Positions 3,401 through 61,465 of a DNA stretch of 64,000 nucleotides are shown here, piece by piece. The stretch is from Sphaerodactylus townsendi (taxonomy: Eukaryota). The notes under the pieces are model-generated. The model was not told the origin of the DNA. It made no database searches and was given only the letters and a program-made list of their open reading frames with translations. The stretch is taken from positions 46,748,001 through 46,812,000 of the forward strand of contig NC_059436.1 in assembly GCF_021028975.2 (NCBI RefSeq), written 5' to 3'. Numbering within the stretch: the first letter of the stretch is position 1; each line of letters starts with the position of its first letter. A program made the position numbers and the translations under genes.

Positions 3401-3678
3401 TGTCGAAGGCTTTCACAGCCAGAATCACTGGGGTGCTGTGTGGTTTCCGGGCTGTATGGCCGTGTTCTAGCAGCATTCTCTCCCGACGTTTCGCCTGCAT
3501 CTGTGGCTGGCATCTTCAGAGGATCTGATGGTTGCCAGTTGCCAGTTGTGTTACAGTTTCATCTCTTACACTTCCTACCATCAGATCCTCTGAAGATGCC
3601 AGCCACAGATGCAGGCGAAACGTCAGGAGAGAATGCTGCTAGAACACGGCCATACAGCCCGGAAACCACACAGCACCC
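3401..3678. mobile_element. Penelope-like element remnant: inverted arm pair, each arm with a minimal hammerhead motif (subfamily A)
   Basis: Arms ~3431-3531 and ~3577-3678 are reverse complements. Flanked by direct repeat CTAATTATTTATTT (3387-3400 / 3678-3691). Confidence 0.8.
3586..3628 (+). ncRNA. Minimal type I hammerhead ribozyme motif (mirror copy on - strand at 3481-3523)
   Basis: TCCT-CTGAAGA-T-GCC...GGC-GAAA-CG-TC-AGGA: core CUGANGA/GAAA, stem II GCC/GGC, palindromic ACGU stem III, GUC cleavage triplet (after 3624), stem I TCCT/AGGA. Confidence 0.75.
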
Positions 3679-4314
3679 TAATTATTTATTTGTTCTAAAT
3701 CAGAAACATGTCACTTCTACCATCCCACAACAATGAAAAGTATTTTTTAAAAAAGTTTAGAACAGAAACAGTAAAAATTGCCATCCAAGTCTTGCTTTCC
3801 TTGCGGCCTTCCCCCAGCAGAACCTGGAGTTGTTCCTTTTTTCATCTCCCCGACCAACCTAGAGACCTTTTTACCATTTCTTTCTCTGGAAGGCTCTGGC
3901 TCTCTCTTCATTCTTTCACTTCTCCTCTCCATCTTCAGATTTTTTCCTTTTTTGTCCCTTCCCCTTTCAGTTTTGCTTCCCTTCTATTTTCTCCCTTCTA
4001 AAGCCCCCCCCCCCCCACACACACAAAATTAGACTTGAAATGCTATGCAACGTTGGTTGCTGGTTGCCTAGCAAATCCAAAATTTCACTATGTCATCTGA
4101 CTATGATCTAAGCAGCACTTCTGTTCTAGAAGGAACAGCGCTGCTAATCACTAATGCATTTTTTAAATGTTATATGTGTTTCTGCAAAACTGCCCAGTTT
4201 GTAGAATACCTAGTGTCGGTCAGTGACTTTATAGTGTGTATTTTCAAGCCTCACTCTACCACTCAGTTTAGAATTAGATACTGATATGTAAATATCAGTA
4301 TGTCTTTGTCAATA

Positions 4315-4510
4315 GGAGCCCGATGGTACAGGGTGGTCAATTGCAGTAAAGCAGTCAAAGCTCTGCTTGCAGCCTGAGTTCAGACCCTACAGAAGTCAGG
4401 TTCAGGTAGTCAGCTCAAGGCTGACTCAGTCTTCCGTCCTCTTAAGATTGTTAAAATGAGCACCCAGTTTGCTGAGAATAATGGGGCAAGGCAATGGCAA
4501 ACCACCCCGT
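4315..4510 (+). mobile_element. tRNA-derived SINE with a GCTCAAGGYTGACTCAG...TAAAATGAGYACCCAG central domain (Meta-domain/Squam2-like)
   Basis: Recognisable decayed central domain and tRNA-like head. Confidence 0.55.
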
Positions 4511-6609
4511 AAATATTTTTACTTTATGTCAATATAATATATGCACAAAGGTAGGATTTCAATAATTAAAGTTAACCATGTAAGGAAAATAGTATTCAAG
4601 AACGGGCTCAAAGTGTTCCAAATAAATATAAACTGTGCAACTACAGTTCCCATCAGATCACAAATATGAATCTTCTAATCTACATTAAGGGGGGAAACGA
4701 CATCTGAGGCAGTCAAACTACTTTGACAGAGAAATATTTTAGTAGAAAATGCCAAATGATGTAACTCTCATCTGGCAAGAATGGCATATCAGACTTGATT
4801 GTAATTTTCACAGGAAAACAGACATGTTACATACTCCTCACCAAAAAAAGACCTATGCTATAAATGATACACTTCCCACAGAAACTGCTTAACCATTCCT
4901 TACACCAGTACCAATCAAGTCTATTACACCAGTTTCTCTGCAGAAAACATGAACTATGTTCTTGTGCAGCACTTGTTTCATCCATGTCAACTTCCAGCCA
5001 CACCACCTCACAGAGAGGGGATAATGCCCACCTACTGTCTCAAAGAGGATTCATCCTTACACTGGCTTTTGGCAAGCCTCCACAGAGCTGTAAACAAGGA
5101 ATGTTGGAAGCTGATAGCAACATAAGAACATAAGAACATAAGAACATTTGCCATTGCCATGGACTGACACACCTAAACACCTTATGAAGTGATCATGTGA
5201 GTCTTCTGCAGACAAACAGAAATGCTAAATGGACTACGTGACTCAAGAGATTGGAAATGGGAGACAGGGAAAGGACCAAGCAAGTTTCGGTCCTGCCTCC
5301 TAATCAATGTAGATAGCGATGTCAAATACAGGAAATAATTGAGGAGTACACTGGAATTTAATATTCTGCTAGTCTAGACAACAACGAAACAGAAAAGAAA
5401 TGGGTAACTGAAGATACCCGGACAACTAATACAACTCTCTCTTTACTGGAAAAAAAACAGGTTGCAAAGAGAGTCATCTGCCATGAGTACTGTCTCCGTT
5501 GAACTCCACTAACTCACACTACAGCAATCTTGACAACACATTTTGCTCTGAAGTTCTGGAGAAAAGAAATTTAGCTATTCCTTTGAAGAAATCTCCTATA
5601 CATTCAGAGACACAAAAGGAAAGCAGCACAGATAGTCCCATCCAGACAGATAGTCACATCCAGACACTGACCACATCCAGACATTGACTTTGCTTCAGCA
5701 AGGTGACTACATCTCATGCCTTCCAACCATATCCCGGGAGTCACATAAAATTTGGTTACAACTGTTTGCTCCTTTAAGTCTCACAGGAAATTCAACAAAA
5801 CTTTCTCCCAAGAAGGCTCACCTAGAGTGCCTGTACCTAGATTCACATTGAATCCCTTGAGACTTACACCCCAGTAAACTAGGCTCTCTCGGCCAGCTTA
5901 CCTTAAAAGTAAACCATATCAAAATCAAGAAGAATTTCATTTCCCAAGGAAGAAGCCTAATAATTCCAGGGCCGATTTGTCAATATCACGCATTCCAATA
6001 TTATCTTTCTCCCTAATTTGATAAGTTTCCAATACAATCATAAATCATCCAGTCATGATCACCCGCATCTTCAGCCAAGACACAGATTGACAGTCAGGAT
6101 GAGAACTGGACTTAAGACTCACATGTTTCGTTTTAAAGAACCAGCGATCAGTAACTTGGATCCATATCCCTGCCTGGATCAGGAACTCTCTGTGGATAGT
6201 CTTAAATCAGGCTTTGCGTCCGATCACACACTTACAGGGCAAGCGTTGCCTGCTCATTTCCATCCAAACTGCTCGACTGATGCTTAAAAGCAAGAACAGA
6301 CCCTTAAAACGACAATCAGTTTTATATGTAGTCCATTGCACATTCACCCCTGACTGGGTCTTGGAATAATGGCCAAATTTTCTAGAACACCCAGTGCCTG
6401 GACAAGGGGGTTAGTGATCAATTAAATGAGCTTGCAGGTTAGTCAGTTAGGAGGCAAAGAAGTGACTGCAGCTTAGTCAAGATGTTTTCTGTATTGCATC
6501 TTTGTATTAGTAAGTTGGGAGGCGTATTAGGAGAGAGCAGCTAACATTCTGTCTGAGGGAACCAATATGTCGCCATCAGGGAAGTTTTATGCTGAATGCG
6601 TTAACTAAA

Positions 6610-6757
6610 TTGTTGAAGGCTTTCACAGTCGATTCAACTGGTTGTGGTGGGTTTTCTGGGCTGTGTGGCCGTGGTCTGGTAGATCCTGTTCCTAACGTTT
6701 ACCTGCATCTGTGGCTGCCATCTTCAGAGGTGCATCACAGAGAGAAGTCTGTTACAC
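6610..6757 (-). mobile_element. Penelope-like single arm (subfamily B), degenerate hammerhead
   Basis: Same TTGTNGAAGGCTTTCAC tail and GCATCTTCAGAGG-type end as the other copies; GAAA box mutated. Confidence 0.7.
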
Positions 6758-6789
6758 TTGTCAAAACTTGTACTGATTCATTCTAATTA

Positions 6790-7324: not shown

Positions 7325-7572
7325 GTTAACCACCCTGAGCTTGGGGTATTAAAATCGAATTAAAAAAATAAAAATAAATCTAAATTTTAAAAATAAAAAA
7401 AAATCTACCCTTTTTGCGAGAAGCTTAAATAGAGCTCCCCTGAGTCTTTTACCGACACAACAACCCTGCGAGGTGGGCAGGCCTGAGGGACTGAGTTTCT
7501 GGGCTACGTATTTTGTAAAACTCTATCTCAGCACTCCTCCGTCCGGCCGCCCTTGTACCCCGTTGGACTCAC

Positions 7573-7839
7573 CCGCAAGTCCCTCTCGGAGCGGTGGAGG
7601 CCCAGCCGGCCCAGCCCCACGGCCAAGTCGTTGACGCAAAGGGCGCCGTCGCGGTTCACGTCGAGCAGGAGGAAGAGGCTGTGGAGGCGCCGCTCGTGCT
7701 CGCAGGTGGAAGAGGCGGCCGCCTCGCTCGCCGGCAGCGGCCCGGCGGATGGGGCCGCGACGGCATCCCCCCCGCAGCACTGACAGAGCACGCCGCTCAC
7801 CACCGGGGAAGCCAGAGACCGCCGCGCGCCGACCGGCAT
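7573..7839 (-). CDS. SLC25A25: SLC25A25 (SCaMC-2, Ca-binding mitochondrial ATP-Mg/Pi carrier), first coding exon of the long EF-hand isoform; downstream exons are outside the window
   Basis: 89 codons, MPVGARRSLASPVVSGVLCQCC...RLHSLFLLLDVNRDGALCVNDLAVGLGRLGLHRSERDLR. This matches the recalled human exon 1 (MVSSVLCRC...LFQTLDVNRDGGLCVNDLAVGLRRLGLHRTEGELQ). EF-hand loop DVNRDGALCVND; ATG in gccATG context; phase-0 GTGAGT donor at 7572; head-to-head with NAIF1 as in mammals. Confidence 0.93.
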
Positions 7840-8760
7840 GGCCGCCTCACGAAGCCACTCGCCGGTCAATGAGGCGCTCTGCCCACAGAAGGAGCCGGCC
7901 GGTTCCCTGATGCGCAACGCCCGCCCACCCGGGTTGCCCGCGCCGCTACCGGATTGGTCTCATCAGCGCACGCTCGCCTCAGCCAAGTCACCCATAGGCC
8001 AAACCCTCGCACGTGGCTCGCGTCCAATCAGAAGGCGGGAGGTGTGGGCCTGACGCTAAACGGGGCCTTGTCTAGACAAGATGGGAGGATTGGAGGAAAA
8101 AAGAGTGACGATGCATCGTGCGCGTGACTCTTGTCTTTCCGCCCACGCCGCATCAACGGGCGGGACTTTGATGTTTTACGCCATGACGTAAAAGCGCCAA
8201 TGAGAGCAAGGCAAAGCAGATACTGTGAACTGATTGGTGTTTGTCAAAGGAAAGGTTTTCTATTGGTTGGTGAATCGGCAACGTAGAAAACTGACAGCGC
8301 AAGCCAAAACTGGTCGGGAGGCGGGACTTTAAAAAAAAGGTTAGATGGGCGGGAGTTAGGAGTTTGAAGCGTGACAGACAAGCTCAGCAGCCAATGAGGG
8401 CCAGAACACTTCACAAGGCAGGCGGCAAGAGAGACAAAGGGCGGGGCCGACTAGCACCAACCCTCCAAGGTGCGCGACGTCGTATGTCTAGCTAAGGAAC
8501 CAATAGCCGCGCAGTAGGGAAAGGGCGGACCCTAGATTCCTGATAGGCAGGAACGTGGCCCAATTAGGGGAGAGAAGCGAGAAACGCTGATTCTAGAAGC
8601 CATTACGCCACTGCCGCAAGCCAGAGACGCTCTTTGGTGCGGGTTCCGCCGGGTGGCCGCGGTACGCAATTTGCGTAACTGGATCTCTCTTAAGGGGAGG
8701 GAGAGGGAGGAGGCGGGCCCCTGAAAGATCCCTTAGGGGCCCCCCAGAGGCCCTGTGGGG
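7840..8760. promoter_or_regulatory. Bidirectional CpG-island promoter shared by SLC25A25 (-) and NAIF1 (+)
   Basis: CpG-rich. CCAAT/ATTGG at 7953, 8024, 8089, 8197, 8233, 8262, 8391, 8500 and 8560; several GC boxes (GGGCGG/GGCGGG); CRE-like TGACG half-sites; lies between two divergent genes. Confidence 0.85.
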
Positions 8761-9925: not shown

Positions 9926-10433
9926 ATGGCAATGTCCTCCCCCCCAGCACCACCGGCTAAAAAGCGGAAGATGAACTTCTCCGAGCGGGAGGTGGAGATC
10001 ATTGTTGAGGAACTAGAGCGGAGCAAGCACCTGCTCATCAATCACTTCAACGCAGGTGTGTCCCTGGCAGCCAAGGCGACTGCCTGGCACAACATCCTAC
10101 GCCGCGTGAACGCCGTGGCCACCTGCCACCGGGAGCTGCACGAGGTCAAGAAGAAGTGGTCAGACCTCAAGACGGAAGTGCGCCGTAAGGTGGCCCAGGT
10201 CCGAGTAGCGATGGAAGGTGGCGATGTCCATGATGGCACTGGAGAGGGCCAGGATGCGGAGGAGCCAACTGGCGCCACCACTGCTCCAGTTATCCTCACC
10301 CCCATGCAGCAGCGTATTTGTAATCTGCTAGGAGAAGCCACCATTATAAGCCTGCCTGCTGGAGACTGCACTGCTGCAGACGGGTCTGAACTCCCAATCA
10401 CAGCCGCAGCCACAACTGTCACTCTTACCCAGA
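9926..10433 (+). CDS. NAIF1: NAIF1 (nuclear apoptosis-inducing factor 1) coding exon 1, with NLS and Myb/SANT-like trihelix domain
   Basis: [22 protein letters not shown]...[40 protein letters not shown]...[21 protein letters not shown]...TVTLTQ is nearly identical to recalled human NAIF1. Phase-1 donor A|GTAAGT at 10434. Confidence 0.97.
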
Positions 10434-11255
10434 GTAAGTGAGTCGTTTATACAGCCACAGCACTTCTGGCTAGTTCAGAAGGGTTTGGCTTGAGGGGGAT
10501 AAATCGCTTGGTGTCAATTCTGTGTATGTTGCCAGCAAAATGAGCAAGGGTGGTGTTTTTATCTGAGACTAATACAGATCACAGGAAGTCTTGTGACTGC
10601 CCAGATGGGTAGATTTACTGTGACGTAAGCACAGGCTGGCAAATACTTTTGTCAAACACACAAAAGAGTTGTGTACATTTGAGAACGTAAGCTCAGAGCC
10701 CATGAAAACTGATAAATCTGTAAGTGCCTCAAGACTTTCTGTTGGTTTTGTGGCCACAGGCATGCACACCTGCCCTCCTGCCATTTATCTGACAGCAGTA
10801 AAGGAGAGATTTCTGCTTGCTTTATTTTTATCCTGCTTTTGCAAAAGTTGATATCTTTAACATGAATTATGTTTATAATATAAAGAAATATGAGTAACTT
10901 CTCAGAAACGAGATAGGATCTGTGTTTTCTGAGAACAGGAAGTTGGGTGGTAAGGAATCTCCTGGCTCTGCACGAAATGTTCTTCAGGAAATTCTGGAGG
11001 GCAAGTTCAGTCATGTTTGAGAATTTATGATCACTGATTCTGGAACCAGGAAACTTTTTTGCCATATTCTGGTGGCCGGCCTGGATGTGGCCAGCTTTCT
11101 TAATTAATTAATATTCCTCACACTTATCTGCGGCGGCCCTCTATGTGGTCTGCGTGAGTTGTGGGTATCTGGCCCTGCTATTGTCTGTTTGCTTGGCAAC
11201 TCTACACACCTAACAGATATGCATGGTACACTGGCTGGCCAACAATCACAGTAAG

Positions 11256-11552
11256 GAGCAGCAGTGGCGTAGGAGGTTAAGAGCTCGTGTATCTAATCTG
11301 GAGGAACCGGGTTTGATCCCCAGCTCTGCCGCCTGAGCTGTGGAGGCTTATCTGGGGAATTCAGATTAGCCTGTGCACTCCCACACACGCCAGCTGGGTG
11401 ACCTTGGGCTAGTCACAGCTTCTCGGAGCTCTCTCAGCCCCACCTACCTCACAGGGTGTTTGTTGGGGGGGGGGGGAAGGGCAAGGAGATTGTCAGCCCC
11501 TTTGAGTCTCCTGCAGGAGAGAAAGGGGGGATATAAATCCAAACTCTTCTTC
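11256..11552 (+). mobile_element. tRNA/CORE-type squamate SINE (Squam3-like) in the NAIF1 intron
   Basis: A box TGGCGTAGGAGG, B-box-like GGTTTGATCCC, CORE-like GCTGGGTGACCTTGGGCTAGTCAC, (TTC)n tail; seven similar copies in the window. Confidence 0.8.
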
Positions 11553-12093
11553 ATAATTCTTATTCCAATATCTGTATCACTCATAAGCATGTAGTCATTC
11601 AAATCATATTCATATCCATATATATATACTATTATGAAAACGTGATCAATCACATGTTATTCAGTCTCCAGAAGTACAACAGAAACATATAATAGTCCAA
11701 CAGTAATCTTCACATTGATCAATCTTGACCAGAACTGGCAAAAAGTAATCCAAAACTCATGTGTACAAACGACAAACTTCACTTAAATCCTCTGATGAAG
11801 TTGCATGAATGGCAATGAACAATAGAGTTCCTGTGACAGTGTCCATGGGCTGAAAGTAGGGACTTGAATCCATAAAGTAAGTTGAATCCACAAGCATGAT
11901 CATTGCAATCATCAACGGAATTGTGAGCACCGCGGCCACACAGCCCAGAAAGCCCAGCACAACCAGATGATCAAACCCTTCGGAGTGGTGCCAGCATCAC
12001 ATTTCTGACCATTCAGGCGACAAGCCCCCCAATGGAGCTCAGAACCCAGTGGTTTGAACACCCTGACCTCTTTCTCTTCCTCTTTTGTTCCAG

Positions 12094-12566
12094 TTCCCGC
12101 AGAGACAACCTACCACAGTCTGGAGGACGGCGTTGTGGAGTACTGCACGTCAGAGACCCCCACCACGGTCACGGCCGAGTCGCCCTTAGAGATGATGGCC
12201 CAGCAAGCCGAGGTCTCCATGAAGCCCCAGGAGCTGAAGAGCAGAATTGCCCTCAACTCAGCCAAGCTCTTGCAGGAGCAGCGGGTGACCAACCTGCACG
12301 TGAAGGAGATCGCCCATCACCTCGAGCAGCAGAACGACCTGCTGCAGATGATCCGCCGCTCTCAGGAGGTGCAAGCGTGCGCGCAGGAGCGGCAGGCCCA
12401 GGCCATGGAAGGGACGCAGGCTGCCCTGAGCGCCCTCATCCAGATCCTCCGCCCCATGATCAAGGACTTCCGGCGCTTCCTGCAGAGCAACACCCCAGCT
12501 CCTCCCGTGGCCGTGGACCCCGGCCAGGCAGCCCAAAACGGACAGCAGGACGGCATCATCCAGTGA
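12094..12566 (+). CDS. NAIF1: NAIF1 coding exon 2 (terminal); spliced CDS 981 nt, 326 aa
   Basis: Polypyrimidine tract plus CAG acceptor (12091-12093). The junction codon A+TT gives Ile, then [18 protein letters not shown]...[27 protein letters not shown]...[10 protein letters not shown], matching the human C-terminus. Confidence 0.97.
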
Positions 12567-17390: not shown

Positions 17391-18260
17391 CACCCTTAAG
17401 AAGCTGAGATCGGTATCAGATCCCTTTTAGTCAGCAACTGAGCCCTCTAATTTTCCTCTGCTAAGACTTTCTATGAAGTATGTGACAGACGCGAAAATGT
17501 TGTTAAAACTCCAGGTCCTTGCTGGCACCTGTTATGATGAATGGTAAGATCTGATCTCAGAAGAACACCAGGAGTCCATACTGGGAACAGTTACTGCGAG
17601 TCAGTCGTAATTCTCATTGCGTACGCTTCAGTTCCACCAGGTACGAACTGATCTTTAAAGCAATGGCAGCCAGGTGAACCGGTCTGAATTCCTTTAAGAC
17701 CAGTTTAAACCAGCTTGGATGAAGTTTGTTCATGATTGTGCCTTCCACAGTCTACTGAAACTAAGGAAGGATTTTTCTACTAGGTATTTAGCATGCTTTT
17801 TTAAAAAATCCAAAAGTATTGAGATTTTAAAAGTGACCTCAGGACTATATGTTTTTTTAATATACTTGTGTAAAAGAATTAATTGACACAGGACTGATAT
17901 TGCTTCTTTTCGCCAGTAAAGATTCAATAAAGATTCGCTTTCTTTCTCTGCCCTTTGTTGGTTCTTTCTTTCTGTGACCTCTGGTTGCTGCTCAAACTCC
18001 CTCTACACAGAAAAGTATTAGTAAGAAGACAAAGTTTGTTGTTTTCTCCTTGATGTGCTAGATTTCTATAGGCATGAAATTTTGTGTGTAGAAGCATTCC
18101 ATCAGATGAGCTCTCATCTCTCCCCTGCTTCAATTCTTTTTTCCTTTTCTGCATGTGTTTTCCTCCCTCTAGTGGTCAATTCGATATTACATTGGTTTAT
18201 GTCCAGCGTATCTTCCAGCACATTTAAACTGCAGACATAAAGCAAAAACAATGTTGAATA

Positions 18261-18459
18261 ACTGGGATGCTGTGTGGTTTCCAGGCTGTATGGCCGTGTT
18301 CTAGCAGCATTCTCTCCTGAAATTTCACCTGCATCTGTGGCTGAAGATGCCAGCCACAGATGCAGGCGAAACGTCAGGAGAAAATGCTGCTAGAACACGG
18401 CCATACAGCCCGGAAACCACACAGCACCCCAGTGATTCCGGCCGTGAAAGCCTTTAACA
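18261..18459. mobile_element. Penelope-like inverted remnant (subfamily A); hammerhead core on + strand at 18341-18379
   Basis: Inverted arms fused by a central deletion that removed the 5' strand of stem I. Approximate TSD TGTTGAATA/TATTGAATA. Confidence 0.75.
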
Positions 18460-19071
18460 GTATTGAATATATCACTAGATGGAGCAAAACACATCCAGAA
18501 CAACTTCCCCCTCCGAGCAACAAGAACTCATAAGCGAGTAAAATGAGAATGCAGAAAAGCCCAGTCAGTGGCCCCCTACAAACATTTTACTGGGAGCAAA
18601 TCTGATAGAACACAGTTTATTAGGATCCTCAGCAAACCTGCTTAGGATAAGCCTTTATTCAGAAGATGCAAATTTAGCCATCCTGATAACAGGAAACTGA
18701 ATTAATGCAGCCCAACAAGCAGATCAAAAGGCTGTTTTTCATTTAAGCTGAAAAGCTACATGCTTAGAGTCCCTGGCTATCATAGAATAATGCCACCAAA
18801 TGGGAAAATAGTGTCTTGTGTTGTTTCCATGGGTTCTTCAGCGTGTGTGTTCCAAGAGACAGGGTTTTGTCTGGTTTCTTCCATCCTAAAGCACTCACTG
18901 CCATAACTTGGATGGCCCCAAGTTATACCAAGTTATATGTTTGGGATAAAGATGAGCGCTGGATGGAAGATCAGTCTGTGGCTCCTTCATGGACCTTCTT
19001 GTAGTTGAGTGCTCTGGTGGGTCCTAGTGATGATGTTTGATGTTTGGGGAGAGTTGGAGGGGGCTTGGGAG

Positions 19072-19463
19072 CAAAGGTGGGATCCAGCAGGTTCTCGCAG
19101 GTCCCCTAGAGTAGGTTACTAATTATTTGTGTGTGCCGAGAGGGGGTTACTAATTGGTGATTTTGCCATGTGATTTTTGCCTTAGTTACGCCCCTCCTCT
19201 CAGCAGTAGCGCGCAGAACTTGAAGCAGTCTAGCAGGAGGTGCACCGGCGTGCGTGGCACCCTGCGCCTGCGTGCATTTGTTTCCCGCCCAAGGACCGGC
19301 GCAGCGGCTGCGTCCTTGCCACAGCCCCGCCCAGGAATGCCCCGCCCCAGGAATGCCTGGCCCCACCCCCGTTGTGCCCCGCCCAGCCCCATTGGCGCTA
19401 CGCCACAGTTTGAATCCCACCACCATGGGAACCTGTTACTAAAATTTTTGGATCCCACCACTG
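19072..19463 (+). mobile_element. ~370-390 bp GC-rich non-autonomous hAT element (CAGWGGTGGGATCC TIR)
   Basis: Highly similar to copies at 20563-20929 (inverted) and 44403-44774. No clean TSD at this copy. Confidence 0.82.
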
Positions 19464-19466
19464 GTA

Positions 19467-20562: not shown

Positions 20563-20929
20563 CAGTGATGGGATCCAAAAATTTTAGTAACAGGTTCCCA
20601 TGGGGGTGGGATTCAAACAGTGGCGTAGCACCAATGGGGCTGGACGGGGCATGACGGGGGCGTGGCCGGGCATTCCGGGGGCGGGGCTGTGGCAAGGACA
20701 CAGCCGCTGCGCCAGTCCTTGGGCGGGAAACAAATGCGCGCAGGCTGCCACGCACCTCCTGCTAGACTGCTCCAAGTTCTGCACGCTACTGCTGAGGAGC
20801 GGAGGAGGGGCGTAACTAAGACAAAAATCACGTGGCAAAATCACTAATTAGTAACCCCCTCTCGGCACACACAAATAATTAGTAACCTACTCTCGGGAAC
20901 CTGTGAGAACCTGCTGGATCCCACCTCTG
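20563..20929 (-). mobile_element. Non-autonomous hAT element, same family as 19072-19463
   Basis: Perfect TSD CTCAGCAG. Confidence 0.88.
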
Positions 20930-21488
20930 CTCAGCAGCCCTTTTTCTACACACAGTGGAACTGACCTCAGTAGTTGAGCACTAGAATTCTGGGAGATCTC
21001 CAGGTGTTACCCTCAAGGTGGCAACCCTACGTGTCAACCATGGTGAACACAGGAAGCTGCCTGGTTCAGAGTCAAGCCATTGACTAATATGACCTGTTGG
21101 ACTTTGCATTATCACTCTGAGTGGGCACACAGTCCTCCTCCATTGGGAAGACCGCAAGCTCGGGAAAGGCGTAAAGTTGGGTGGTATAGGGAATGGGAAA
21201 TGGGACTGCACAGTCATTAAGGAAAGCCTGAATGCTTAGCAGTCCTCCCTATAATGCCGTAGCTGTTCCTAGTATTTCAGCTGAGGAGAACCTGTACATT
21301 TAAATGAAGGCAGCAAACAAAACCCACACCTTACATCAGCCCCACACACTTTCTGACTAGCGTGGGGTGTGCCAGAAGAAGTACTAGTGGGCATCATGGG
21401 AAGTACCTGTGGGTACCATGTTGGTGACATCTGCTCTAGCCCCTCAGTTGCCTGTCCCCTTGTATCTCTGTAAATAAAGGAGCTAGAG

Positions 21489-21688: not shown

Positions 21689-21991
21689 CGGTGATGGGAT
21701 TCAGCAGGTTGGCACCACTTCAGCAGAAACAGTTGTTAAAATGTATTGTCAAAGGCTTTCACGGCCGGATTCAACTGGTTCTGGCGGGTTTTCCGGGCTG
21801 TGTGGCCGTGGTCTGGTGGATCTTGTTCCTAATGTTTCGCCTGCGTCTGTGGCTGGCATCTTCTCTGATACACCTCTGAAGATGCCCGCCACAGATGCAG
21901 GCGAAACGTTAGGAACAAGATCCACCAGAACCAGTTGTTAAAATGGTGCTTGTAAACAACCAGTTGTTAAATTATTTGAATCCCACCACTG
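21689..21991 (+). mobile_element. Short hAT MITE (CAGTGGTGGGATTCA TIR) interrupted by a Penelope-like insert
   Basis: TSD GATATAAC/GATGTAAC; uninterrupted paralog at 38622-38757. Confidence 0.85.
21746..21929. mobile_element. Penelope-like inverted remnant (subfamily B) nested in a hAT MITE; hammerhead on + strand at 21873-21913
   Basis: CCT-CTGAAGA-TGCC...GGC-GAAACGTT-AGG. Flanked by duplicated CAGTTGTTAAAATG (21730-21743 / 21932-21945). Confidence 0.8.
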
Positions 21992-25424: not shown

Positions 25425-26170
25425 GGAATACAGACCAGTGGCCCATCTAGTCCAGCATCCTGTCTCCCATCCTGCCCACCAGTTATTGTAGAAGGCCAAG
25501 GTCTTCCCCTGATGTCACTTCCTAGCACCATATTCAAAGGTTTACTGCCCCAAAATGTGAAGGATCCCTTCAGGGTCCATTGGTAGTAGCCACTAAAAGA
25601 TCTCTCCTCCATGAATTTGTCTAATCCTCTTTTAAGCCAACTATGCTTGCGACCATTACAACGTCCTCTAGCAGGAAATTTCACATTTTAATCGTTCTTT
25701 GGATAAAGAAGGAGTTCCTTTTCTCTGCTCTGAATCTATTGCTCGTCAACTTCATTGGGTGCCTCCAAATTTCACTACTTTGGAGAGGGAGAAAAAGTTA
25801 TCCATCCCATGCATCATTTTATAAACATTTATCCTATCTTCCCTCAGGCATTTGTTTTCTCAAATGAAAGTCTCTTTTGCCTTCCCTCATAGGAAATGTG
25901 CTCCAGTTGGTCAATTATCTTTTCTATGTTTTTTCAGCTCTCCAGTGTCTTTTTTGAGAAATGGTTACCAGAATTATACAGAGTATACCAAGTGAGGCCA
26001 TGTTACAATCCTATACAGGGGCATTATAACAGACAGTTTTCTTCTGAGCCCTTTTCTTAATAATCCTCAGCATGAAGTTTGCCGTTTTCACCACCGCCAC
26101 ACACTGAGTTGACTTTTTCATTGAGTTATCCACTTTTGGAAGTCCAAATATACAATGTCAACTGGATCAC
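25425..26170 (-). mobile_element. Decayed CR1 LINE 3' fragment
   Basis: Minus-strand LKRGLDKFMEERS and CR1 3'UTR GCTGGACTAGATGGGCCACTGGTCTG. Confidence 0.75.
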
Positions 26171-26172
26171 CA

Positions 26173-26421
26173 GGAGCAGCAGTGGCGTAGTGGTTAAGAG
26201 CAGGTGTACTCTAATCTGGAGGAACTGGGTTTGATTCCCCGCTCTGCCGCCAGCTCTGGAGGCTTATCTGGGGAATTCAGATTAGCCTGTACACTCCAAC
26301 ACATGCCAGCTGGGAGACCTTGGGCTAGTCACAGCAGGGGAAGGGTAAGGAGTTTGCAAACCCCTTTGAGTTTCCTATGGGAGAGAAGGGGGGGGGGGGA
26401 TATAAATCCAACTCTTCTTCT
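26173..26421 (+). mobile_element. Squam3-like SINE, internally deleted
   Basis: Similarity to 11256-11552. Confidence 0.78.
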
Positions 26422-31293: not shown

Positions 31294-33285
31294 CGCTAGA
31301 TGTTTTACCCAGAGTTGGCCAGTGGTCCGCTCAGTCTGCATCTTGGAACGGGAGACCAGAAGTAAAGGAGAAAGGTAGTCTATGTTTCCTCTAGTTTATC
31401 CCCATGATCGCTACCTTCTCCTGCCTTTTGTACAAACAGCACAGAATTGCACCAAGAGAATTATGAGAGTCAAACGTGGATGGTAAAGCTTAGCTGAAGA
31501 ACTTTCTGAGGTTTGGCTCTCTCCTTGTCCATCAATCTCCACCCTTGGACGCAGTGTCCTACTAAATGCATTCTCCTTCTTTGCACCACTAAACGGAGCT
31601 ATCGGTCTGTGCTCCCCCCATATTATTCCCTAAGTGAAGGTCTGAAGTCCTTACAGTGTTGGAGGAAGGAGTGTTGGAGGAAGGAGGAAGCACGAGGATT
31701 TGTAGAAACTGCTGGAGGATTCGGTCCTAAACTCTTGAAGCATCCAGTTGGAAGACAAACTGTTTTGGCTTGTGGGAAGGAGAGACAAAGGAGAGCGTAC
31801 AGTTGGCATTTGGCCTGAGGATCTGATTTGAGGAAAATCTTGGCTCTGTGCTCTGAGCTTAAAACTAGGACGAAGTTTGCTGCACGGGAAATTCGAGGAG
31901 TTAAGGCTGGTGACTGGGCAGCATGGTTGAATACAGAAGTCCCCAAGCTTTTTGAGTCTGTGGGCACCTTTGGGATTCTGCCATAAAAGGTCAAACCAAC
32001 CACAAAAGGGCCGCCACAAGAGGTAAGGCCAAGCACAAAATGTCAGGGAGTGGATTCATGCGCAACTCTCATAGTAACTCTTCATTTCCGGCAGAAACTC
32101 AGTTCGAAAGGATGCCTTTTAAAACGAACTAGTGTTTTAAAATATTTTTTTCTTGCATACGCACAGTGCACCCTCAGTCATATAGTAAAGATGCTCGGGT
32201 TGTAGCGGCCGTTCCTGCTGGCGGTGCTTTGTTGAAATTCTGCACAGCAAATCAGATCTTCAGTGGCCAGTCCCCCCTCCCCTTACCCTGCCCACTTTCT
32301 AAAATTCTTGTGGACATCTGGAAAGGTGTTTGAAGGCACCCTGGCTCCCATGAGCACCATGTTGGGGATCCTTGGGTGAGCAAAACAGAGTGTTGCCGAG
32401 ATCAACTTACTGTTGGGGTGGAGGGCCAAGAAGGGAACTGAGGGAGCGTGGAAGCCAGCTGGGAAAAACATGGCTTAGGGAACCACTGTTCGAATTGTGC
32501 CCAGAAGAAAGAACTTATTGCTTGAGAGGCTCACTGGGGTGAGATGACAGGATAGGAAGCCAAGTAAAATGACTGTGTGGGAAATATTCATTAGTTAATG
32601 GAAATTGGGATGTTTCATGGGTGTTTCATGGAAATTGGGATGTTTCATGTTTGGAGAAGGAAGGAATAAGGAATGTTTGAGATGCTAGTCCGACTCAGAG
32701 TTGGTAGCTTCCTTTAACTGTTAAGACTTCGAGCTTGTTGCATGAGGGGTGCAGCTGAAGGGGTGGTTCTGAACTTCAGGATCATTCCTTGAAGAGTGCG
32801 GGAGAGGAAGTGAGCCTATCAAGAAACATGACAGACCAAGTCCTGAGAATCCATTTCGTGTGTTTATTTTTGCCATCAGCAGACTCATCCCTTGTACTTG
32901 CTTTCCAGTCAATAATTTCTAACCAGGATCTGCTTTGCTAAACCTGACTGTTTACCTGCTGTAAGTCACTGAGAATTAACAACTGAGTCAAATCCAGAGG
33001 TTTAAGAACACCGATTAAAGGCAGGTTTAAGGCTGGATGAAGGCTGTCTGGTTATAAAATTGGGGTGTTTAATTTATAGCTTTTAATGTGGTAAACTGCT
33101 GCTCAGGTTTTAGGTTTTTAATGATTTTAGTGTTTATGCTGTTGATTTGCTGTCCGATTCAACAGCCATACTGTGAGCCGCCTTGAGCCCTTCGGGGATA
33201 AGGCGGCCTATAAGTCTAATAAAATAAATAAATAAATAAATTATAATACAGCTTTGGAGGACCTTGAGCAAACTCCTGTACCTGC

Positions 33286-33556
33286 TGGTTGTGGTGGGTT
33301 TTCCGGGCTGTGTGGCCGTGGTCTGGTAGATCTTGTTCCTAACATTTCTCCTGCATCTGTGGCTGGCATCTTCAGAAGTGTATCACTGAGAGAAGTCTGT
33401 TACACACTGTGTCCAGTATCCCTCTGCGATACATCTCTGAAGATGCCAGCCACAGATGCAGGCAAAACATTAGGAACAAGATCTACCAGACCACGGCCAC
33501 ACAGCCCAGAAAACCCACCACAACCAGTTGAATCCGGCCGTGAAAGCCTTCGACAA
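33286..33556. mobile_element. Penelope-like inverted remnant (subfamily B); both hammerheads mutated in the GAAA/stem III region
   Basis: Inverted arms; TSD TCCTGTACCTGC/TCCTGCACCTGC; the + arm core reads GGCAAAACATT instead of GGCGAAACGTT. Confidence 0.8.
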
Positions 33557-34518
33557 TCCTGCACCTGCCTTCTCCCTTGACATGCTTCTGAGGTGGCCGA
33601 GTACTTCTTGAAGCTGGCTGAAAATCGCAAGAGAAAGGCCACAAACTGAATTTTACCAAAAGCTTGTTAGCGTATACATGAGTGTAGAGAAATAGAACAT
33701 GATGGTCCTTTTTGATGCGTGATGTGTCTTATTGATGTGTCATATTGATGTGTATTGAAAATTATATAAAAATATTTTTTCAGGGTTGTACATCTTGATT
33801 GTTTCAAGAGGACTGCGGTAGCCGTTGCTATGTACAGGAAAGAATGATGTTTGGGGTGGGAGGAAGATAACCTGCATTGGTGCTTAGATCAGAATGAGAT
33901 AAGACTTGAGCGTTTGTCTATAATTAGATGGGGCTGGGTACAGAGGGAGGAGCTTCACGCTGTCTCTGCCTAACCACCTTGCTTCCTTCCTTAGGCTGAC
34001 AAGAAACCTGTGATAGCCACAGCAGAAGCAGCAACGGCTTTTCTGCGTTTGAAGCTTTGCACAAGGGGAGGAGGCTGAAACTGTGAAGCTTAGACTGTGC
34101 CACACGCCAGCTCAGAAAGAAGACGGCAATGCTTTCGAGAGGGGCCCTGCAAGAAACCGATCACTTCCACCTGTAATCAAAACAGCTCCTGCTGGTCTGG
34201 AGTTCAGATTCCCACCCTCTCCTGTTCCCCTCCCTTGGAGATGAACCAGAGGCTCGATCTTTCCTCCTCCTTGCCTGAAATCTCCATCAGCAATGATACT
34301 ATAGCCAGATCCGACCACCAAAGAGAGAAGGAGATTTTTCCCTTTAAAGCTAGGCTTCTATTGCAACTGAACTAGGATTCATCCTTTATTTTTTTTTAAA
34401 TTGGATCAACTGTGGGCTTTTAGGTTTCATTTGACATTTTGAAACATCATTATTGTTTCCATTTGTTGTCATAGCTGCTGCTGCTGTTGGTTTTCTTGGA
34501 TAAAAATTGGATTTATAA

Positions 34519-34695: not shown

Positions 34696-35898
34696 TAAGA
34701 AATCGTTTGGGCAGTGCTGTTCTCTGCCTCTTCTTTACCGGATATATGTCGCTCTGAGCAGGTTGTGTATGACTAGAACTTTTCCTTTTCTTCCGTTGTT
34801 ACATACGGCTGCCCCCTCTTTTTTTTGATGTAAAACTGTGGGAAGAGATACTCCGCTGTGTGTAGTCCCCAGATTCTTCTGGGAGTTGAGCTGATGCTCT
34901 TCCCTAGAAACTGCATACTTGGCATTGCCATCCTAAGCAGAGATAACCTTTAAGTGATCTAGAGCACCTTCCCTACTCAAGTCGCCCATATAGTAATGAG
35001 AAACTCCGTAGAGTAATGAGAAACTCCCTACTCGAGTCGCCCATATAGTAATGAGAAATGGGGAAGCTGCTTTGCTGTGTTGCATGAAAGCAGTGCAGAC
35101 TCTTGTGGCACTTAAAAGCTTAACACACGTTCCGGCATAAGAGCTCTTGAATGAAAACTCACTTTGTTACATGTGTGAAGTGTTAGTTATGGGTTCAGCC
35201 CTCCATGGCGACTGAGAAGAGGGGATGTTCTAAAAGAGGCCAGAAGATCCAGCAATTCAAGAAACAGTTTAATGTTATTGAACCCTCATACAGACAGCAG
35301 CTTGGTTTCAACAGAAGCAATGCGTGTCCCACCCTGCTTGGATCATTTATGCTTTTGACTGGGTTATTTCTTTGTGGTCTGCATAGTAAATTATGATCTG
35401 CATCTATCTTTGGATGGCTTGACCTTCTGGTATCGTTTTGCAGTCATCTTCCCCACCCTTATGTCTGTTAGCATATGTGCATGGAAATCTATTATAAATG
35501 CATGCTCATTTATCAATATAAATGAAGGGAGGTGACTGCAGAGTGAGGCTCAAAGGCCCAGAGATCCAAGGAACAGATGTTATGAGCACAAGATCCAGTT
35601 AGAGTGGGAGTGGATCGCTCCTAACTGCCGATGAATTGCTGAAGTCAAAGGAATGGGGTACGCCGATCGCTGAAGAGGGACAATCCCTTTCTGTAAAGTG
35701 CTTCCTGATTCTTGTTAAGACCAAGAAGTTTCCTGTGCAGTTTTGACACTCTTCAGTCTGTTCTCTTGCAGCTGCCTCCCATCCCTCCCTTTTGTTTGTA
35801 CCTGTTTGCATCACCTGTAGTGAAGGGAGTTGCCTCTGTGCCAGTCACGAAAGCTGGGAAACTATGCAACCCAACGACAGTGTAAGAGTCTGTGCATA

Positions 35899-36049
35899 GG
35901 GTGCTGTGTGGTTTCCGGGCTGTATGGCCGTGTTCTAGCAGCATTCTCTCCTGACGTTTCGCCTGCATCTGTGGCTGGCATCTTCAGAGGATACAGCCCG
36001 GAAACCACACAGCACCCCAGTGATTCTGGCCGTGAAAGCCTTCGACAAT
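35899..36049. mobile_element. Penelope-like inverted remnant (subfamily A); intact hammerhead on - strand at 35949-35991
   Basis: Perfect 12-bp TSD AGTCTGTGCATA (35887-35898 / 36050-36061). Confidence 0.82.
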
Positions 36050-37002
36050 AGTCTGTGCATACTCGGGCAGGCCCCCAAAATATGCAGGAAAAGATTAGTC
36101 AAGTCAGTCAAAAGAGAGACTTTTCTCCCCACCATCATGGCTTCTGAGCTGATAGTTCTCCAGAAGGCATGGTGTCAATTAAAGGAGAGGGGAAATCAAC
36201 CTAGTCAAGGCCTTGAGGGGTTATGGGGTCCTGGAGGGAAACATTTTTGAGGTGGGTAGACGATTTCCAAACTATTCTGCAGTTCCTTGCAGGCCTCTGA
36301 CTTGTGCATGTATGTGTATTAGATAAGCCATATGTTAACTCTTTAAGGTGCACAAGCCCCTTTACTGTAACAATGAGAGCAAATTCACTGAGATCTAATT
36401 AGGGAAGTCATCTGTTTGCCAAACTTTATCATGCACTGTTTAGCTGTGATCCTCTGTTTTTGCTCCTCTTCCAACTTTATGAATTACTGCATAGTAAATA
36501 ATGTACTGCATCTATCTTTACATTAGTTTTGGAATGGCTTATAATAAAATATTTAAAAAATCACCAATCATATGCAGTTTATCCTTTGTTCATAAAAAAG
36601 AGGCGAAAAGGTTGCAGAAGAAAGATGAGCAGGACAGGTTCTGAAAAGTTATTTTTTGTCATTGTAATTATAATCTTTTCTGTGCTTCTCCTTGCTTTAA
36701 TGAAGAGACTGTCCCGTCTGTCAGCGTCTGCTAATCATGTTTTGTTGGTTTTGTTGACTGTGTGCACATTGATTATTGCCTAGCACCATGCCAGCGCGAA
36801 TTCCAAAGCAACTCATGACTTGCTTGTGAGCCGTCTTGTTCCAGATGATTCTGGAATCTTCTTGTGTTGGGACACAAGTATGTGGATCTGAATAAAGGGA
36901 CAGAATTTGATTGGGAGTGACACTGACTTTGTTAGACTGTGAATTTTGTGGCATGGAATCTTCTTATGCTGCTACTGTCATCGATATTCTGTTTTTCTAG
37001 AG

Positions 37003-40550: not shown

Positions 40551-40853
40551 GAGAAGAAGAAGAAGAGTTTGGATTCATATCCCCCCTTTCTCTCCTGCAG
40601 GAGACTCAAAGGGGCTTACAATCTCCTTACCTTTCCCCCCTCACAACAAACACCTTGTGAGGTAGGTGGGGCTGAGAGAGCTCCGAGAAGCTGTTCCTAG
40701 CCCAAGGTCACACAGCTGGTGTGTGTGGGAGTGTACAAGCTAATCTGAATTCCCCAGATAAGCCTCCACAGCTCAGGCGGCAGAGCTGGGAATCAAACCC
40801 TGTTCCTCCAGATTAGATACACGAGCTCTTAACCTCCTACGCCACTGCTGCTC
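40551..40853 (-). mobile_element. Squam3-like SINE
   Basis: Reverse complement of the 11256-11552 family. Confidence 0.8.
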
Positions 40854-41359
40854 CAGATTTTACCATCCCATTTAGTATAAAAATTGGAATAACCTGGCCA
40901 ATTCTAGATAGGCATCAAAAAGAATACATGAAATAATGGACAGAGCACTTTTTCCATGTCAAGAACCACACTGGGAACCGAGCATGAGAAATTTAGAAGG
41001 GATTGTAATTTATTCATATGCTCTATCTGTATTTCCTTTGGCTTTAAGTATTTGCAAAGGTTCCTATCTGCCTTCTGTACATTGCTTTCATTTACAGTAT
41101 TCTACAATTGCTGGTCCTGTGCTGTTTTAAAAGCCAAGCAAAGTGTGTTCATTCTTTCTTTTAAAAATATCCTAGAAAAATAGTTATTAGCACTTCAAAA
41201 TGAGCCTTTGCTAAAATCTGAAACGGTCAGCTGTGTATGCATGGCACATCTTAATGTTGATGTGTGTTCTTGCATGGCATTCCCCCACTCTCTGAGGTTT
41301 GACATCTTTAATACTTTGGTGGAGAGACCTGACTCTTTGGAGAGGGGAGAAGATTCCCA

Positions 41360-46184: not shown

Positions 46185-46192
46185 ACGTGATA

Positions 46193-51269: not shown

Positions 51270-51563
51270 GAGCAACAGTGGCATAGGTGTACTCTAATCT
51301 GGAGGAACCGGGTTTGATCCCCTGCTCTGCCGCTTTATCTGTGAAGGCTTATCTGGATAATTCAGATTAGCCTGTGCACTCCAACACATGCCAGCTGGGT
51401 GACTTTGGGCTAGTCACAGTTCTTCGGAGCTCTCTCAGCCCCACCTACCTCACAGGGTGTTTGTAGTGAGGGGAGAAGGGAAAGGTGTTTGTAAGGCCCT
51501 TTGAGTCTCCTTACAGGAGAGAAAGGGGGGGGGATATAAATCCAACTCTTCTCCTCCTTCTTC
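51270..51563 (+). mobile_element. Squam3-like SINE inserted in an old Penelope-type fragment
   Basis: Similarity to the family; flanks AAAAGCTTATGCC...TAAGGTGCCATGG and GGACTCCTTTTTGTTTTTG read as one interrupted repeat. Confidence 0.75.
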
Positions 51564-53019: not shown

Positions 53020-53375
53020 GAGGAGGAGGAGGGTTGGATTTTATAACCCCCCTTTCTCTCCCGCACGGAGACTCGAAGGGGCTTACAATCTCCTTTCCCT
53101 TCCCCCTCCCTCACAACAAACACCCTGTGAGGTGGGTGGGGCTGAGAAAGCTCAGAACAGTGGTGGCGAACCTTTGGCACTCCAGAGGTTATGGACTACA
53201 ATTCCCATCAGCCCCTGCTAGCATGGCCAATTGGTCACTCAGCTGACATGTGTTGGAGTGCACAGGTTAATCTGAATTTCCCAGATAAGCCTCCACAGTT
53301 CAAGCGGCAGAGCGGGGAATCAAACTCGGTTCCTCCAGTTTAGAGTACACCTGCTTTTAACCACTACGGCACTGC
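53020..53375 (-). mobile_element. Squam3-like SINE with half a hAT MITE inserted (53158-53233)
   Basis: SINE similarity is interrupted by CAGTGGTGGCGAACC...GGCCAATTGG. Confidence 0.75.
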
Positions 53376-53519
53376 TGGTCAAGGCAATGAGAACCGGGTG
53401 CCTTGAAGCAGCTCACAAGCAATCTCCTATTTTGTCTGTAGTGTCTAGAAAACAAAAGATTTTCCTTGACTATCAAGATTCCAGTCTTGGCCTCCTTTGC
53501 TAAAAGCCATTGATTAGAC

Positions 53520-59459: not shown

Positions 59460-59875
59460 GGACAGCATTACAAAGACGTTTCTGAAAAGCCCTAGCATGT
59501 ATACTGCTCAAGGCCTTAAAGGTTGGAACCAAAACCTTGAACATGATCTGGAATTCTATTGGCAACCAGTGCAGCTGGCATAGTATCAGTGTAATATGGG
59601 CTCTCACCCTTGCTTCTGCGTTCTGAACCAATTTTAGCGTCTGAATCAGTCTCAAGGGCAGGCCTGTATAGAGTGAATTACAGTAATCTAACCTAGAGGT
59701 GACCGTTGCATGGATCACTGTGGACAGGTCTGAGTGGAAGAGGTAAAGGGCCAACTATCTGGCCTGATGCAGATGGAAGGAGACCACCTCGGCCATATGG
59801 GCGACCTGGGTCTCTGTAGACAAGGACTCCAGTCACACCCAGGCTCTTGACAGATGAAATGGGTATTAATGCCAC
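59460..59875 (-). mobile_element. L2 LINE fragment
   Basis: VIHATVTSRLDYCNSLYTGLPLRLIQTLKLVQN...LHWLPIEFQIMFKVLV. Confidence 0.8.
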
Positions 59876-60502
59876 TTCTTGAGAAATGGTGCAAGGAGTG
59901 TATGAAACAGGGAGAATAATTTTTTTTCTAAATTTAAAACAATCAGATTTTTATTTAAATCAGATTTTTAAAATAAAATGCCTTTGAGGAAAAAAATCTA
60001 TCTAAATATAGTTTTCTATTTAGGATACATTATAGACCAAAGATCATGGAATAAGGATTAGTTTTTAATTGCATAGCATGAGACTGTATATTCACGCCGT
60101 GTTTATTTTTGGGAGTAATTGAATTCCACTAATCCGTTCGCAATGTCATGCTCTTCCAGAGGTTTCTGTAAGATTGTTTGGTGCTATTTTTCTAAAAGAC
60201 ATTGTGGATGCTTGGTTTTGCCATTCTGTAAAACTGCCCAAAATAGAATCTGTGCTTTTGTCAAATCAAAGATCTCTGTGAATCTATTCCCAAGTGTGCT
60301 GTGTTTAGTATTCTGTATCACTGGATCCATTACTAAACTGGTTGGCTCTTGTGTGGTTAACTAAAGCCATACAAGAAAGAGATGCATAGACAAGGTATTT
60401 ACGTGCTAAAGGACTTCCTAGACTGGGAATAAACATGATTTTGTCAGATAACCCAAAGGGGAATCCTAAAATGTTGGAATAGAATGTTGAGAGCACCTAG
60501 AC

Positions 60503-60631
60503 TAAGGGTGGGCAACCTATTGTGCTCCAGATGTTCATGGACTACAATTCCCATCAGTTGGCCATGCTGGCAGGGGCTGATGGGAACTGTAGTCCATAAA
60601 CATCTGGAACACAATAGGTTGGCCACCCCTG
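60503..60631. mobile_element. Palindromic hAT MITE, CAGGGGTGGCCAACC type
   Basis: TSD ACCTAGAC/AGCTAGAC. Confidence 0.85.
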
Positions 60632-60844
60632 AGCTAGACCATGGAATCAGGTTGCAAGAAGACCAGACCAGGTGCTCACTTAGCAGACCAGCTGCTCAGG
60701 AGCAGCAGCAGCAGAAGGCCATTGCTTTCACATCCTGCACGTGAGCTCCCAAAGGCACTTGGTGGGCCACTGCGAGTAGCAGAGTGCTGGACTAGATGGA
60801 CTCTGGTCTGATCCAGCAGGCTAGTTCTTATGTTCTTAAGAACC

Positions 60845-61465
60845 AGTGAAGAGCTCTCTCTTTGGCAAGGTGCAGTGTGCTTCCTTCAGCTGTAACAACA
60901 AGAAGAGGTCTAAAAATTCCCTACCAGGACAGAATCTGTGATTGCAACATGAAGCAGACTGAATCTGTCATTCACATGCCTCTACATTGCCCATTTTATA
61001 AGACAATCAGGTCCAACTTGCTGCCCCTGTACTCATTAATAAAGAAGGTCTATCAGACCAACAAAAAAATCTGATCTTTTAAACAATGATTCTTCCACTA
61101 TCTCTGAAATGGTGGCTAAGCACCTGTGTTATGTAATGTCAAAGGCTTTCACAGCCGGATTCAACTGGTTGTTGTGGGTTTTCCGGGCTGTGTGACATTA
61201 GTCTGGTAGATCCTGTTCCTAACATTTTGCCTGCATCTGTGGCTGGCATCTTCAGAGATGTATCACAGAGATAAGTTTATTACACACTGTGTCTGTTACA
61301 GATGCAGGCAAAACGTTAGGAACAAGATCTACCAGACCACGGCCACACAGCCCGGAAAACCCACAACGATCAACCACCTGTGTTATGACATTAAGTTGCA
61401 ACCATGATTGTATTACTCTGTGTTCACTACTAATCTGTATTATTTATTATGCCAGTAAAAGGTTT
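60845..61465 (+). mobile_element. RTE-X-like LINE 3' fragment with CCHC knuckle; similar tail at ~52880-52950
   Basis: LARCSVLPSA...IPYQDRICDC...ESVIHMPLHCPFY; ends TATGCCAGTAAAAGG. Confidence 0.6.
61134..61374. mobile_element. Penelope-like inverted remnant (subfamily B) nested in an RTE-X-like LINE fragment
   Basis: Perfect 13-bp TSD CACCTGTGTTATG (61121-61133 / 61375-61387); hammerheads degenerate. Confidence 0.8.

Follow-up and report, generated by a model that had tools for sequence, protein, structure and literature searches.

Inverted inserts in the genome of Sphaerodactylus townsendi as pLTR ends of two Poseidon-type Penelope-like elements, likely copied from one RNA onto both cut strands

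A 64,000-nucleotide stretch of the Sphaerodactylus townsendi genome (assembly GCF_021028975.2, contig NC_059436.1, forward-strand positions 46,748,001 to 46,812,000; the whole stretch is called the window below) carries short, mostly inverted inserts with minimal hammerhead ribozyme motifs in their arms. Judged by sequence, these arms are the pseudo-long-terminal-repeat (pLTR) ends of two Poseidon-type Penelope-like elements (PLEs), families A and B, with protein-coding parents in the same genome. The regular shape of the inserts, with a long end, a short end and a family-specific inner stop, likely records the copying of one RNA onto both cut strands of the target. They are read here as dead-on-arrival copies of the pLTR end, made when one RNA is primed twice and copying runs off its 5' end, a reading given a probability of roughly 0.65-0.7; of its parts, priming of both target strands is considered highly probable, and the equation of the inner stop with the 5' end of the RNA probable, if slightly less so. 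Parentage, a one-tail rule, target-site duplications (TSDs) of 11-15 bp, family-specific stops, junction features and neutral decay form the demonstrated part of this account.

In coordinates counted from the A of the parent ATG as +1 (window 3596 in the first copy), with the preceding base as 0, the arms comprise the last bases of the 3' untranslated region (UTR) and the first 83 or about 118 nt of the open reading frame (ORF). Arm-identical copies of family A extend 5' to variable points, through the 3' UTR, a GIY-YIG motif and then the reverse transcriptase (RT), and the inserts form a continuous series with 5'-truncated and near-full-length RT/GIY-YIG copies. In near-full-length family A copies (L171-L173, L295, L304 and others) the pLTR ATG opens an ORF, and a Pfam RVT_1 match is followed downstream in the same frame by GVY-x-IPCSCGQ-x-YIG (L072, L085); the structural features of PLEs, namely a pLTR overlapping the ORF start, partial tandems, an inverted pLTR, a 30-40-bp tail and a variable TSD, are likewise all present. 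An earlier sequence-only reading of the window had suggested a Penelope-like origin and named a search for RT/GIY-YIG parents as a check, and those parents are found in the same genome. The family A endonuclease (EN) has two cysteines (CSC) between GIY and YIG and histidines downstream, giving the CCHH pattern, while the CX2-5CxxC linker finger of Neptune and Nematis was looked for between the thumb and EN of family A and not found, both features being clade criteria (PMC8557442). A Pfam scan of the endonuclease pieces gave no GIY-YIG model match to the family A domain itself; some relatives carry PF01541, and a PDB sequence search returned weak bacterial RT matches only. Family B extends into its own endonuclease, seen from YIG onward only, which is 70% identical to that of family A over 94 aa. 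The best protein match of family A, and the best named one, is the uncharacterised Anolis sagrei LOC132775540 (85% aa identity; next relatives about 60%). That the inserts are ordinary Poseidon products seems nearly certain.

Two side observations concern the parents. Between a decayed family A protein (L072:1341-2759) and Anolis sagrei ORFs the identity is 85%, against about 60% or less for the next relatives, of which many are from insects; horizontal transfer of family A among lizards, or from arthropods, is possible on such comparisons. A Poseidon-like RT protein filed under Escherichia coli lies on a 2.6-kb contig and is probably contamination.

Abundance was gauged in 136 arbitrary stretches of 10 kb (1.36 Mb), where 94 arms were counted, making up about 58 inserts (1.0% of bases; present in 42/136 stretches). 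This density, about 43 inserts per Mb, or roughly one per 23 kb, extrapolates to roughly 77,000 inserts in the 1.81-Gb genome. The inserts are very abundant, as had been supposed, although the proposed spacing of one copy per 9 kb holds locally, in a window with two to three times the average density of the sample, and not in general. Region 3570-3680 as a genome query found 40/40 scored matches elsewhere at 100% identity, which rules out a chance origin of the window copies. The 84 inverted inserts analysed comprise 31 from arbitrary stretches, 6 from the window and 47 from loci fetched by search; rows left out of counts are L031 (same locus as L019), the duplicates L001, L191 and L221, and L042, where A and B arms stand 1.1 kb apart with no TSD. 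A family B upstream search matched a nested short interspersed nuclear element (SINE), and the resulting loci were used as extra sequence only. Sizes are narrow, 32/37 unselected pairs spanning 135-287 bp.

The outer ends of these pairs obey a one-tail rule. Among 70 classifiable inverted inserts, 67 join one tailed arm to one short-end arm, three have two short ends and none has two tails (p=4e-17 against independent choice); the arbitrary stretches alone give 22/25, every one of the 54 classifiable pairs whose TSD is at least 10 bp has one tail, and 13/13 further cases among ORF-reading inserts read by hand conform. TSDs of at least 10 bp flank 57/84 pairs, 41 of them at 12-14 bp, and 15/83 unpaired arms, several of these doubtful and some 5' ends lying outside the locus; the duplicated bases are AT-rich (65.5% against a background of 54.5%). 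One clear case in 83 'single' arms proved to have an inverted stub hidden beside it (L026, 9 nt of tail next to a short-end arm). The arm reaching more than 20 nt further 5' is the short-end arm in 22/67 inserts and the tailed arm in 13/67. Non-CpG variants common to both arms of one insert occur at 0.0137 compared with 0.0040 in permuted pairs (3.4x; maximum 0.0071 in 1000).

Junctions between arms are individual, 82 distinct patterns being found in the 84 inserts. Nearly half of the young pairs (22/45) are joined without filler, and 16 of those 22 show microhomology of 2-5 nt, against 15% expected (p=3e-9), while fillers are often copied from the element itself; microhomology and fillers resemble polymerase-theta-type end joining. 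The exact junction of the window copy at 35899 has nine genome copies, each with its own TSD and with the tail on the right in seven and on the left in two, which indicates separate origins; the exact 18261 junction was counted 22 times in the genome. Many ORF-reading copies consist of an inverted arm, an ORF piece to +300 to +500, and then a terminal arm. As a separate observation, a few short direct repeats occur outside the window: at L294/L299 (G000:C6:21328169-21331688) a unit from -9 to +316 appears twice with the same junction, and L091:7738-8079 holds direct repeats of a short unit from -11 to +111. These look like rolling-circle or repeated-jump products and are possible candidate seeds of retrozyme-like arrays.

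Inner ends cluster at about -11 in family A and at -38 to -47 in family B. Arms at risk end at -16 to -7 in 20/31 cases for A against 1/33 for B (p=8e-8), and at -49 to -36 in 21/22 for B against 1/6 for A (p=4e-4); in the arbitrary stretches and window alone the first stop is used by 13/16 A and 1/22 B arms, and the second by 13/13 B arms. A TATATA motif starts at -47/-45 in A and at -75 in B; in either family it begins 28-33 nt above the stop's far edge. The A stop recurs where no partner arm intervenes, at direct ORF-to-pLTR junctions (the terminal arm starts at -14 to -9 in 8/16, with a short A-run at four of those eight), and at the 5' ends of ORF-reading copies (8/30 loci, two of them one insert). 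Family B stops lie 30-40 nt upstream of the hammerhead motif, so the stop is separable from the ribozyme edge. A splice acceptor at A -11/-10 was considered as its cause; no upstream exon common to those junctions was found, and this is not favoured.

Were the mRNA to start about 30 nt below the TATA motif, at about -12 in A and -47 in B, both priming sites would fall within about 170 nt of the RNA 5' end. A protein dimer would cut the two strands 12-14 bp apart, and each 3' end would prime at a different site (about +83 and +118); most cDNAs would end at or before the RNA 5' end, yielding arms of 90-170 nt, and microhomology-type end joining would then link the two same-sense cDNAs head to head, sometimes via a short palindrome at the stop. 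Longer copies would arise when the enzyme jumps from the RNA 5' end to a downstream RNA 3' end, or reads a tandem or circular template. Precedents exist in L1 twin priming, where both target strands prime, and in retroviral strong-stop DNA, where a short cDNA reaches the RNA 5' end, runs off and has to jump; L1 twin priming, however, copies non-overlapping parts of the RNA, whereas in the present inserts both arms are copies of a single segment, begun at two fixed sites, at the target. The Anolis carolinensis Poseidon element, PAc, cuts both strands and extends them in vitro and is predicted to form a dimer (PMC11167929), which by analogy fits two-sided priming without showing the pairing.

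The hammerhead motif appears to have little part in shaping the stubs. Minimal type I features (CUGANGA, GAAA-UH core, stems I and II, palindromic 15.2-16.2) are complete in four of the eight motif-spanning window arms, namely those the sequence-only reading had named: 3586..3628 (+; parent-ORF ATG at 3596, predicted cut after 3624, +29), 3481..3523 (-, in the inverted arm of the same insert), 21873-21913 (+; predicted cut after 21910) and 35949-35991 (-). All four carry the ACGU palindrome, and both predicted cut sites had been placed correctly. Of the other spanning arms, 1/8 has lost the palindrome and 3/8 have a broken core. Description of the inserts as inverted hammerhead pairs is apt for the copy at 3401 alone (1/7 with two intact ribozymes), since in the six others either one arm ends within the motif or ahead of it, or the core carries a mutated base. 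An Rfam scan of the window at E<=5 gave no hammerhead family match, merely hairpin matches below threshold, and the motifs were recognised by core letters, not by an Rfam model. RNA of 3401-3677 is predicted to fold as a single hairpin (-225.8 kcal/mol), so that its ribozyme pair is predicted to be inactive, and predicted monomer folds of six arms contain no hammerhead fold and gain no stability over shuffled sequences (z -0.3 to -1.6), as expected of a motif without stem III.

Between families the motif is identical at 41/43 positions, compared with 12/50 upstream, 35/50 at +34 to +83 and 31/35 in the tail, in keeping with the expectation that the core would be better conserved than its flanks; the cause is selection on the parents, in which the motif also encodes protein. 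After insertion, CpG sites mutate at 0.253 in the core and at 0.24-0.25 elsewhere; 61/108 unselected arms span the motif, and 28/61 keep the core. It is thus likely that the hammerhead functions in the parent and that the stubs carry it along as a passenger; within inverted inserts it is predicted to be trapped in a hairpin.

Several explanations compete with two primings and run-off. The sequence-only reading had favoured an undescribed non-autonomous family, in which ribozyme-bearing miniature elements would themselves be transcribed and re-mobilised by Penelope protein. Copy number (about 43 inserts/Mb), narrow sizes (32/37 unselected pairs) and the recurrence of two window junctions 9 and 22 times genome-wide accord with this, as does a proposal that animal retrozymes are PLE derivatives (bioRxiv 10.64898/2026.07.22.740005). 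The narrow size, however, is accounted for by the inner stop, and the 82 patterns in 84 inserts, grading into ordinary truncated Penelopes, are the independent breakpoints that the sequence-only reading had itself named as refuting, not the fixed unit that master copies would leave; the nine same-junction copies split 7 to 2 by tail side, all with their own TSDs. Moreover, stubs end at +83 or +118 (by about +120) and lack +119 to +172, part of the initial 172 nt of ORF that PAc requires as template in vitro (PMC11167929), and an inverted RNA would be a perfect hairpin; nor are there tandem arrays, the defining trait of retrozymes. Independent breakpoints, core decay and the missing segment together speak against a non-autonomous family, which is largely refuted and very improbable. 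Still less credible, and refuted for the stubs, is hammerhead cleavage as the event that forms the template end and sets stub size: the conservation of the motif between families (41/43) and the protein-assisted cutting of the PAc ribozyme (PMC11167929) would suit it, yet inner arm ends do not gather at the cut near +30 (0/42 in A, 2/44 in B), family B stops lie 30-40 nt upstream of the motif, and PAc ribozyme mutants insert normally in vitro (PMC11167929). A role of the hammerhead in the 3' end of the parent RNA or in circles is untouched by the stub evidence.

Two further alternatives keep the parentage and alter how the arms form. With snap-back self-priming, the cDNA from the tail site would fold at a palindrome and copy itself, the short end arising by later cleavage, a scheme akin to the self-priming idea (PMC3846280) and to EN-mediated resolution (PMC8557442). 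It would yield one tail per insert and identical arms, and finds the hairpins of both stop zones and a few junctions symmetric on the A palindrome (L112, L303) on its side; a copied arm, however, cannot exceed its template 5', whereas the short-end arm extends past the tailed one by over 20 nt in 22/67 inserts and by 500-1900 nt in L008 and L083, and many junctions lie off palindromes, with 2-5-nt microhomology or fillers. Snap-back is thereby excluded as a general route, may still make a minority, and is unlikely overall. Somewhat less improbable, though still unlikely, is the suggestion that two-sided priming is right and the stop is a structural pause or a joining hotspot at a hairpin or TATA/palindrome. 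Against it, the stops fall on the far (5') side of the hairpins, which the RT has already passed, are kept even if the partner arm terminates at another point (5 A and 6 B cases), recur at direct junctions with no partner arm, and keep a TATA spacing of 28-33 nt in both families. This structural explanation nevertheless remains the chief competitor, since short hairpins occupy both stop zones and a mapped PLE promoter is TATA-less.

Those same points, with others, count against two primings with run-off. The hairpins (A -14 to -2, B -49 to -32) could produce a structural stop or an annealing bias; the transcription start is placed by inference, using motif spacing and the ends of copies, and the mapped promoter of D. 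virilis Penelope is the TATA-less one (PMC2377424). Three short+short pairs exist, none with a TSD of at least 10 bp; single-arm copies occur, some with TSDs; and 14/84 pairs, in which an outer end is truncated, could not be assigned a tail or short end. Variants shared between arms are also compatible with gene conversion at a later time, or with two RNAs that have a source locus or period in common, and PAc chose its start site without a strand difference in vitro, although pairing was not part of that assay (PMC11167929). Fully neutral decay is qualified by non-CpG substitution rates of 0.035 in the core, 0.043 in the rest of the motif and 0.063-0.088 in the flanks, a gradient probably due to flank differences among source subfamilies.

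A broader reading, for which we hold the odds to be even, is that PLEs integrate obligatorily by two primers on one RNA: a protein dimer would prime the two target strands at fixed sites close to the 5' end of its own mRNA, and each strong-stop cDNA would have to jump to an RNA end further downstream before the gene could be copied, the tens of thousands of stubs then being failed jumps whose inner ends map the transcription start site of each family. If so, the tail, the inverted pLTR, partial tandems and miniature copies would share one mechanism, distinct from the integration of long interspersed nuclear elements and of long-terminal-repeat elements.

Much of the anatomy has precedent, inverted pLTRs, tails and opposite-strand hammerhead pairs being already published, and the elements are two more Poseidon families with their truncated copies. 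PAc, with an RT followed by a C-terminal GIY-YIG, has an ORF that starts at stem II, a cut 26 nt after the start codon, and RT starts at +111-118 plus a second site, which define the tail (PMC11167929). Domain order, ATG at stem II, cut position, two copy-end sites and AT-rich targets are alike here; the host is different, two families are present, the likeness is one of published geometry, not of sequence alignment, and the one-tail pairing, inner stop and junction features do not figure in the available part of that report. For EN+ PLEs, insertions with an inverted 5'-truncated copy head to head and a 30-40-bp tail 'often only at one end' are described (PMC8557442, Craig 2021), as are a pLTR with TATA and initiator (Inr), a palindrome at its 5' end and the self-priming idea (PMC3846280, Arkhipova 2013). 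The present inserts share inverted pLTR, tail, TSD, TATA, palindrome and partial tandems with these, but are counted on 84 cases, most without any ORF, and argue against self-priming as a general route. Metazoan PLE minimal hammerheads number thousands per genome, reptiles included, and opposite-strand pairs 100-700 bp apart were ascribed to truncated PLEs in 2014 (Cervera and de la Pena 2014, PMC4209133); these have the same core, extra base before stem II and palindromic 15.2-16.2, with no difference in kind evident in the available text, and such hammerheads cleave weakly (PMC4209133) or need protein (PMC11167929). Non-LTR retrozymes (bioRxiv 10.64898/2026.07.22.740005; PMC7229834) are also non-coding, PLE-related and of type I, yet form head-to-tail arrays with a ribozyme per unit, whereas the present inserts are single or head to head with variable breakpoints, and no window copy is a tandem of units with intact hammerheads. 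The literature searched held no count of the one-tail rule or of a family-specific inner stop, which older reviews (Arkhipova 2006; Evgen'ev and Arkhipova 2005) may describe.

The inserts thus offer a natural data set on the origin of tails and inverted pLTRs, a question that PLE papers themselves leave open. Family A is near PAc, the one PLE working in vitro, which makes the rules of one tail, of either arm being longer and of a stop tied to promoter spacing, not to the ribozyme, directly testable. Since the genome holds two families that stop at different points, the stop can be told apart from the ribozyme edge. Such inserts make up about 1% of the DNA sampled, much of it predicted to form perfect hairpins when transcribed.

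In the window, all seven copies listed by the sequence-only reading are present in two families, as are six with inverted arms and five TSDs of 12-14 bp (one with a single mismatch). Family A is represented at 3401, 18261 and 35899, and family B at 6610, 21746, 33286 and 61134, together with an eighth, overlooked piece, an old 42-bp fragment at 11929..11970 (+) covering +48 to +89. The first family A insert (3387..3691; inverted inserts are given without a strand as wholes) has a 14-bp TSD (3387-3400/3678-3691), a minus-strand left arm at 3401-3532 with a tailed end and inner end at -18, a filler at about 3533-3571 and a plus-strand right arm at 3572-3677 (inner end -23, short end +83). Its junction includes, at 3537..3573, a 37-bp exact inverted copy of window 2529-2565, host DNA ~1 kb off, and thus a templated insertion. 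The second (18249..18469) has an imperfect TSD, of 7 exact bp or 12 with two mismatches, and 3-nt microhomology at the junction; its left arm (minus) runs from a short end to an inner end at +5, and its right arm (plus, from 18341) from -5 to a tail, with a core lacking the 5' strand of stem I. The third (35887..36061) has a 12-bp TSD (35887-35898/36050-36061) and 2-nt junction microhomology, its left arm (35899-35992, minus; short end, inner end -10) holding the intact hammerhead and its right arm (35991-36049, plus) running from +57 to the tail without one.

Among the family B copies, the single arm at 6609..6757 (-) is tailed, with an inner end at -35 and a core broken by the missing G12; no TSD was found beside it. 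The insert at 21730..21944 has a 13-bp TSD (21730-21742/21932-21944), a tailed left arm (21744-21863, minus; inner end -3) and a right arm (plus, from 21862; inner end -19) whose short end has an internal deletion after +48. That at 33274..33568 is flanked by a 12-bp TSD with one mismatch (33274-33285/33557-33568) and joins a short-end left arm (minus, inner end -47) to a tailed right arm (plus, inner end -23), both hammerheads being mutated (palindrome or G12). The last, at 61121..61387, has a 13-bp TSD (61121-61133/61375-61387), a tailed left arm (minus, inner end -43) with a mutated core, and a right arm (plus) from +10 to the short end.

Host genes appear elsewhere in the window. An ORF of Myb/SANT-like type (Pfam Myb_DNA-bind_5) and what is likely its second exon are at 9926-10441 (+) and 12054-12566 (+), and the opposite strand carries an EF-hand exon at 7528-7917 (-). 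Together they resemble NAIF1 nested in an intron of SLC25A25, in which case several of the inserts would be intronic. A second, denser family of 80-190-bp palindromic inserts, resembling miniature inverted-repeat transposable elements, occurs at 2029-2113, 13550, 21516, 31174, 37030, 45895, 46624, 52467 and 60530; these match Rfam mir-5408 below its threshold, which by sequence suggests that the mir-5408 family may derive from such an element. SINE-like repeats of ~300 bp, which we take to be Sauria-type, lie at 11252-11542, 26170-26406, 38387-38819, 40599-40854, 51285-51541 and 53097-53384. Long inverted arms at 19061-19463 and 20563-20940 (139 and 125 nt, 91-93%), about 1.1-1.6 kb apart, are perhaps the derivative of a larger DNA transposon.

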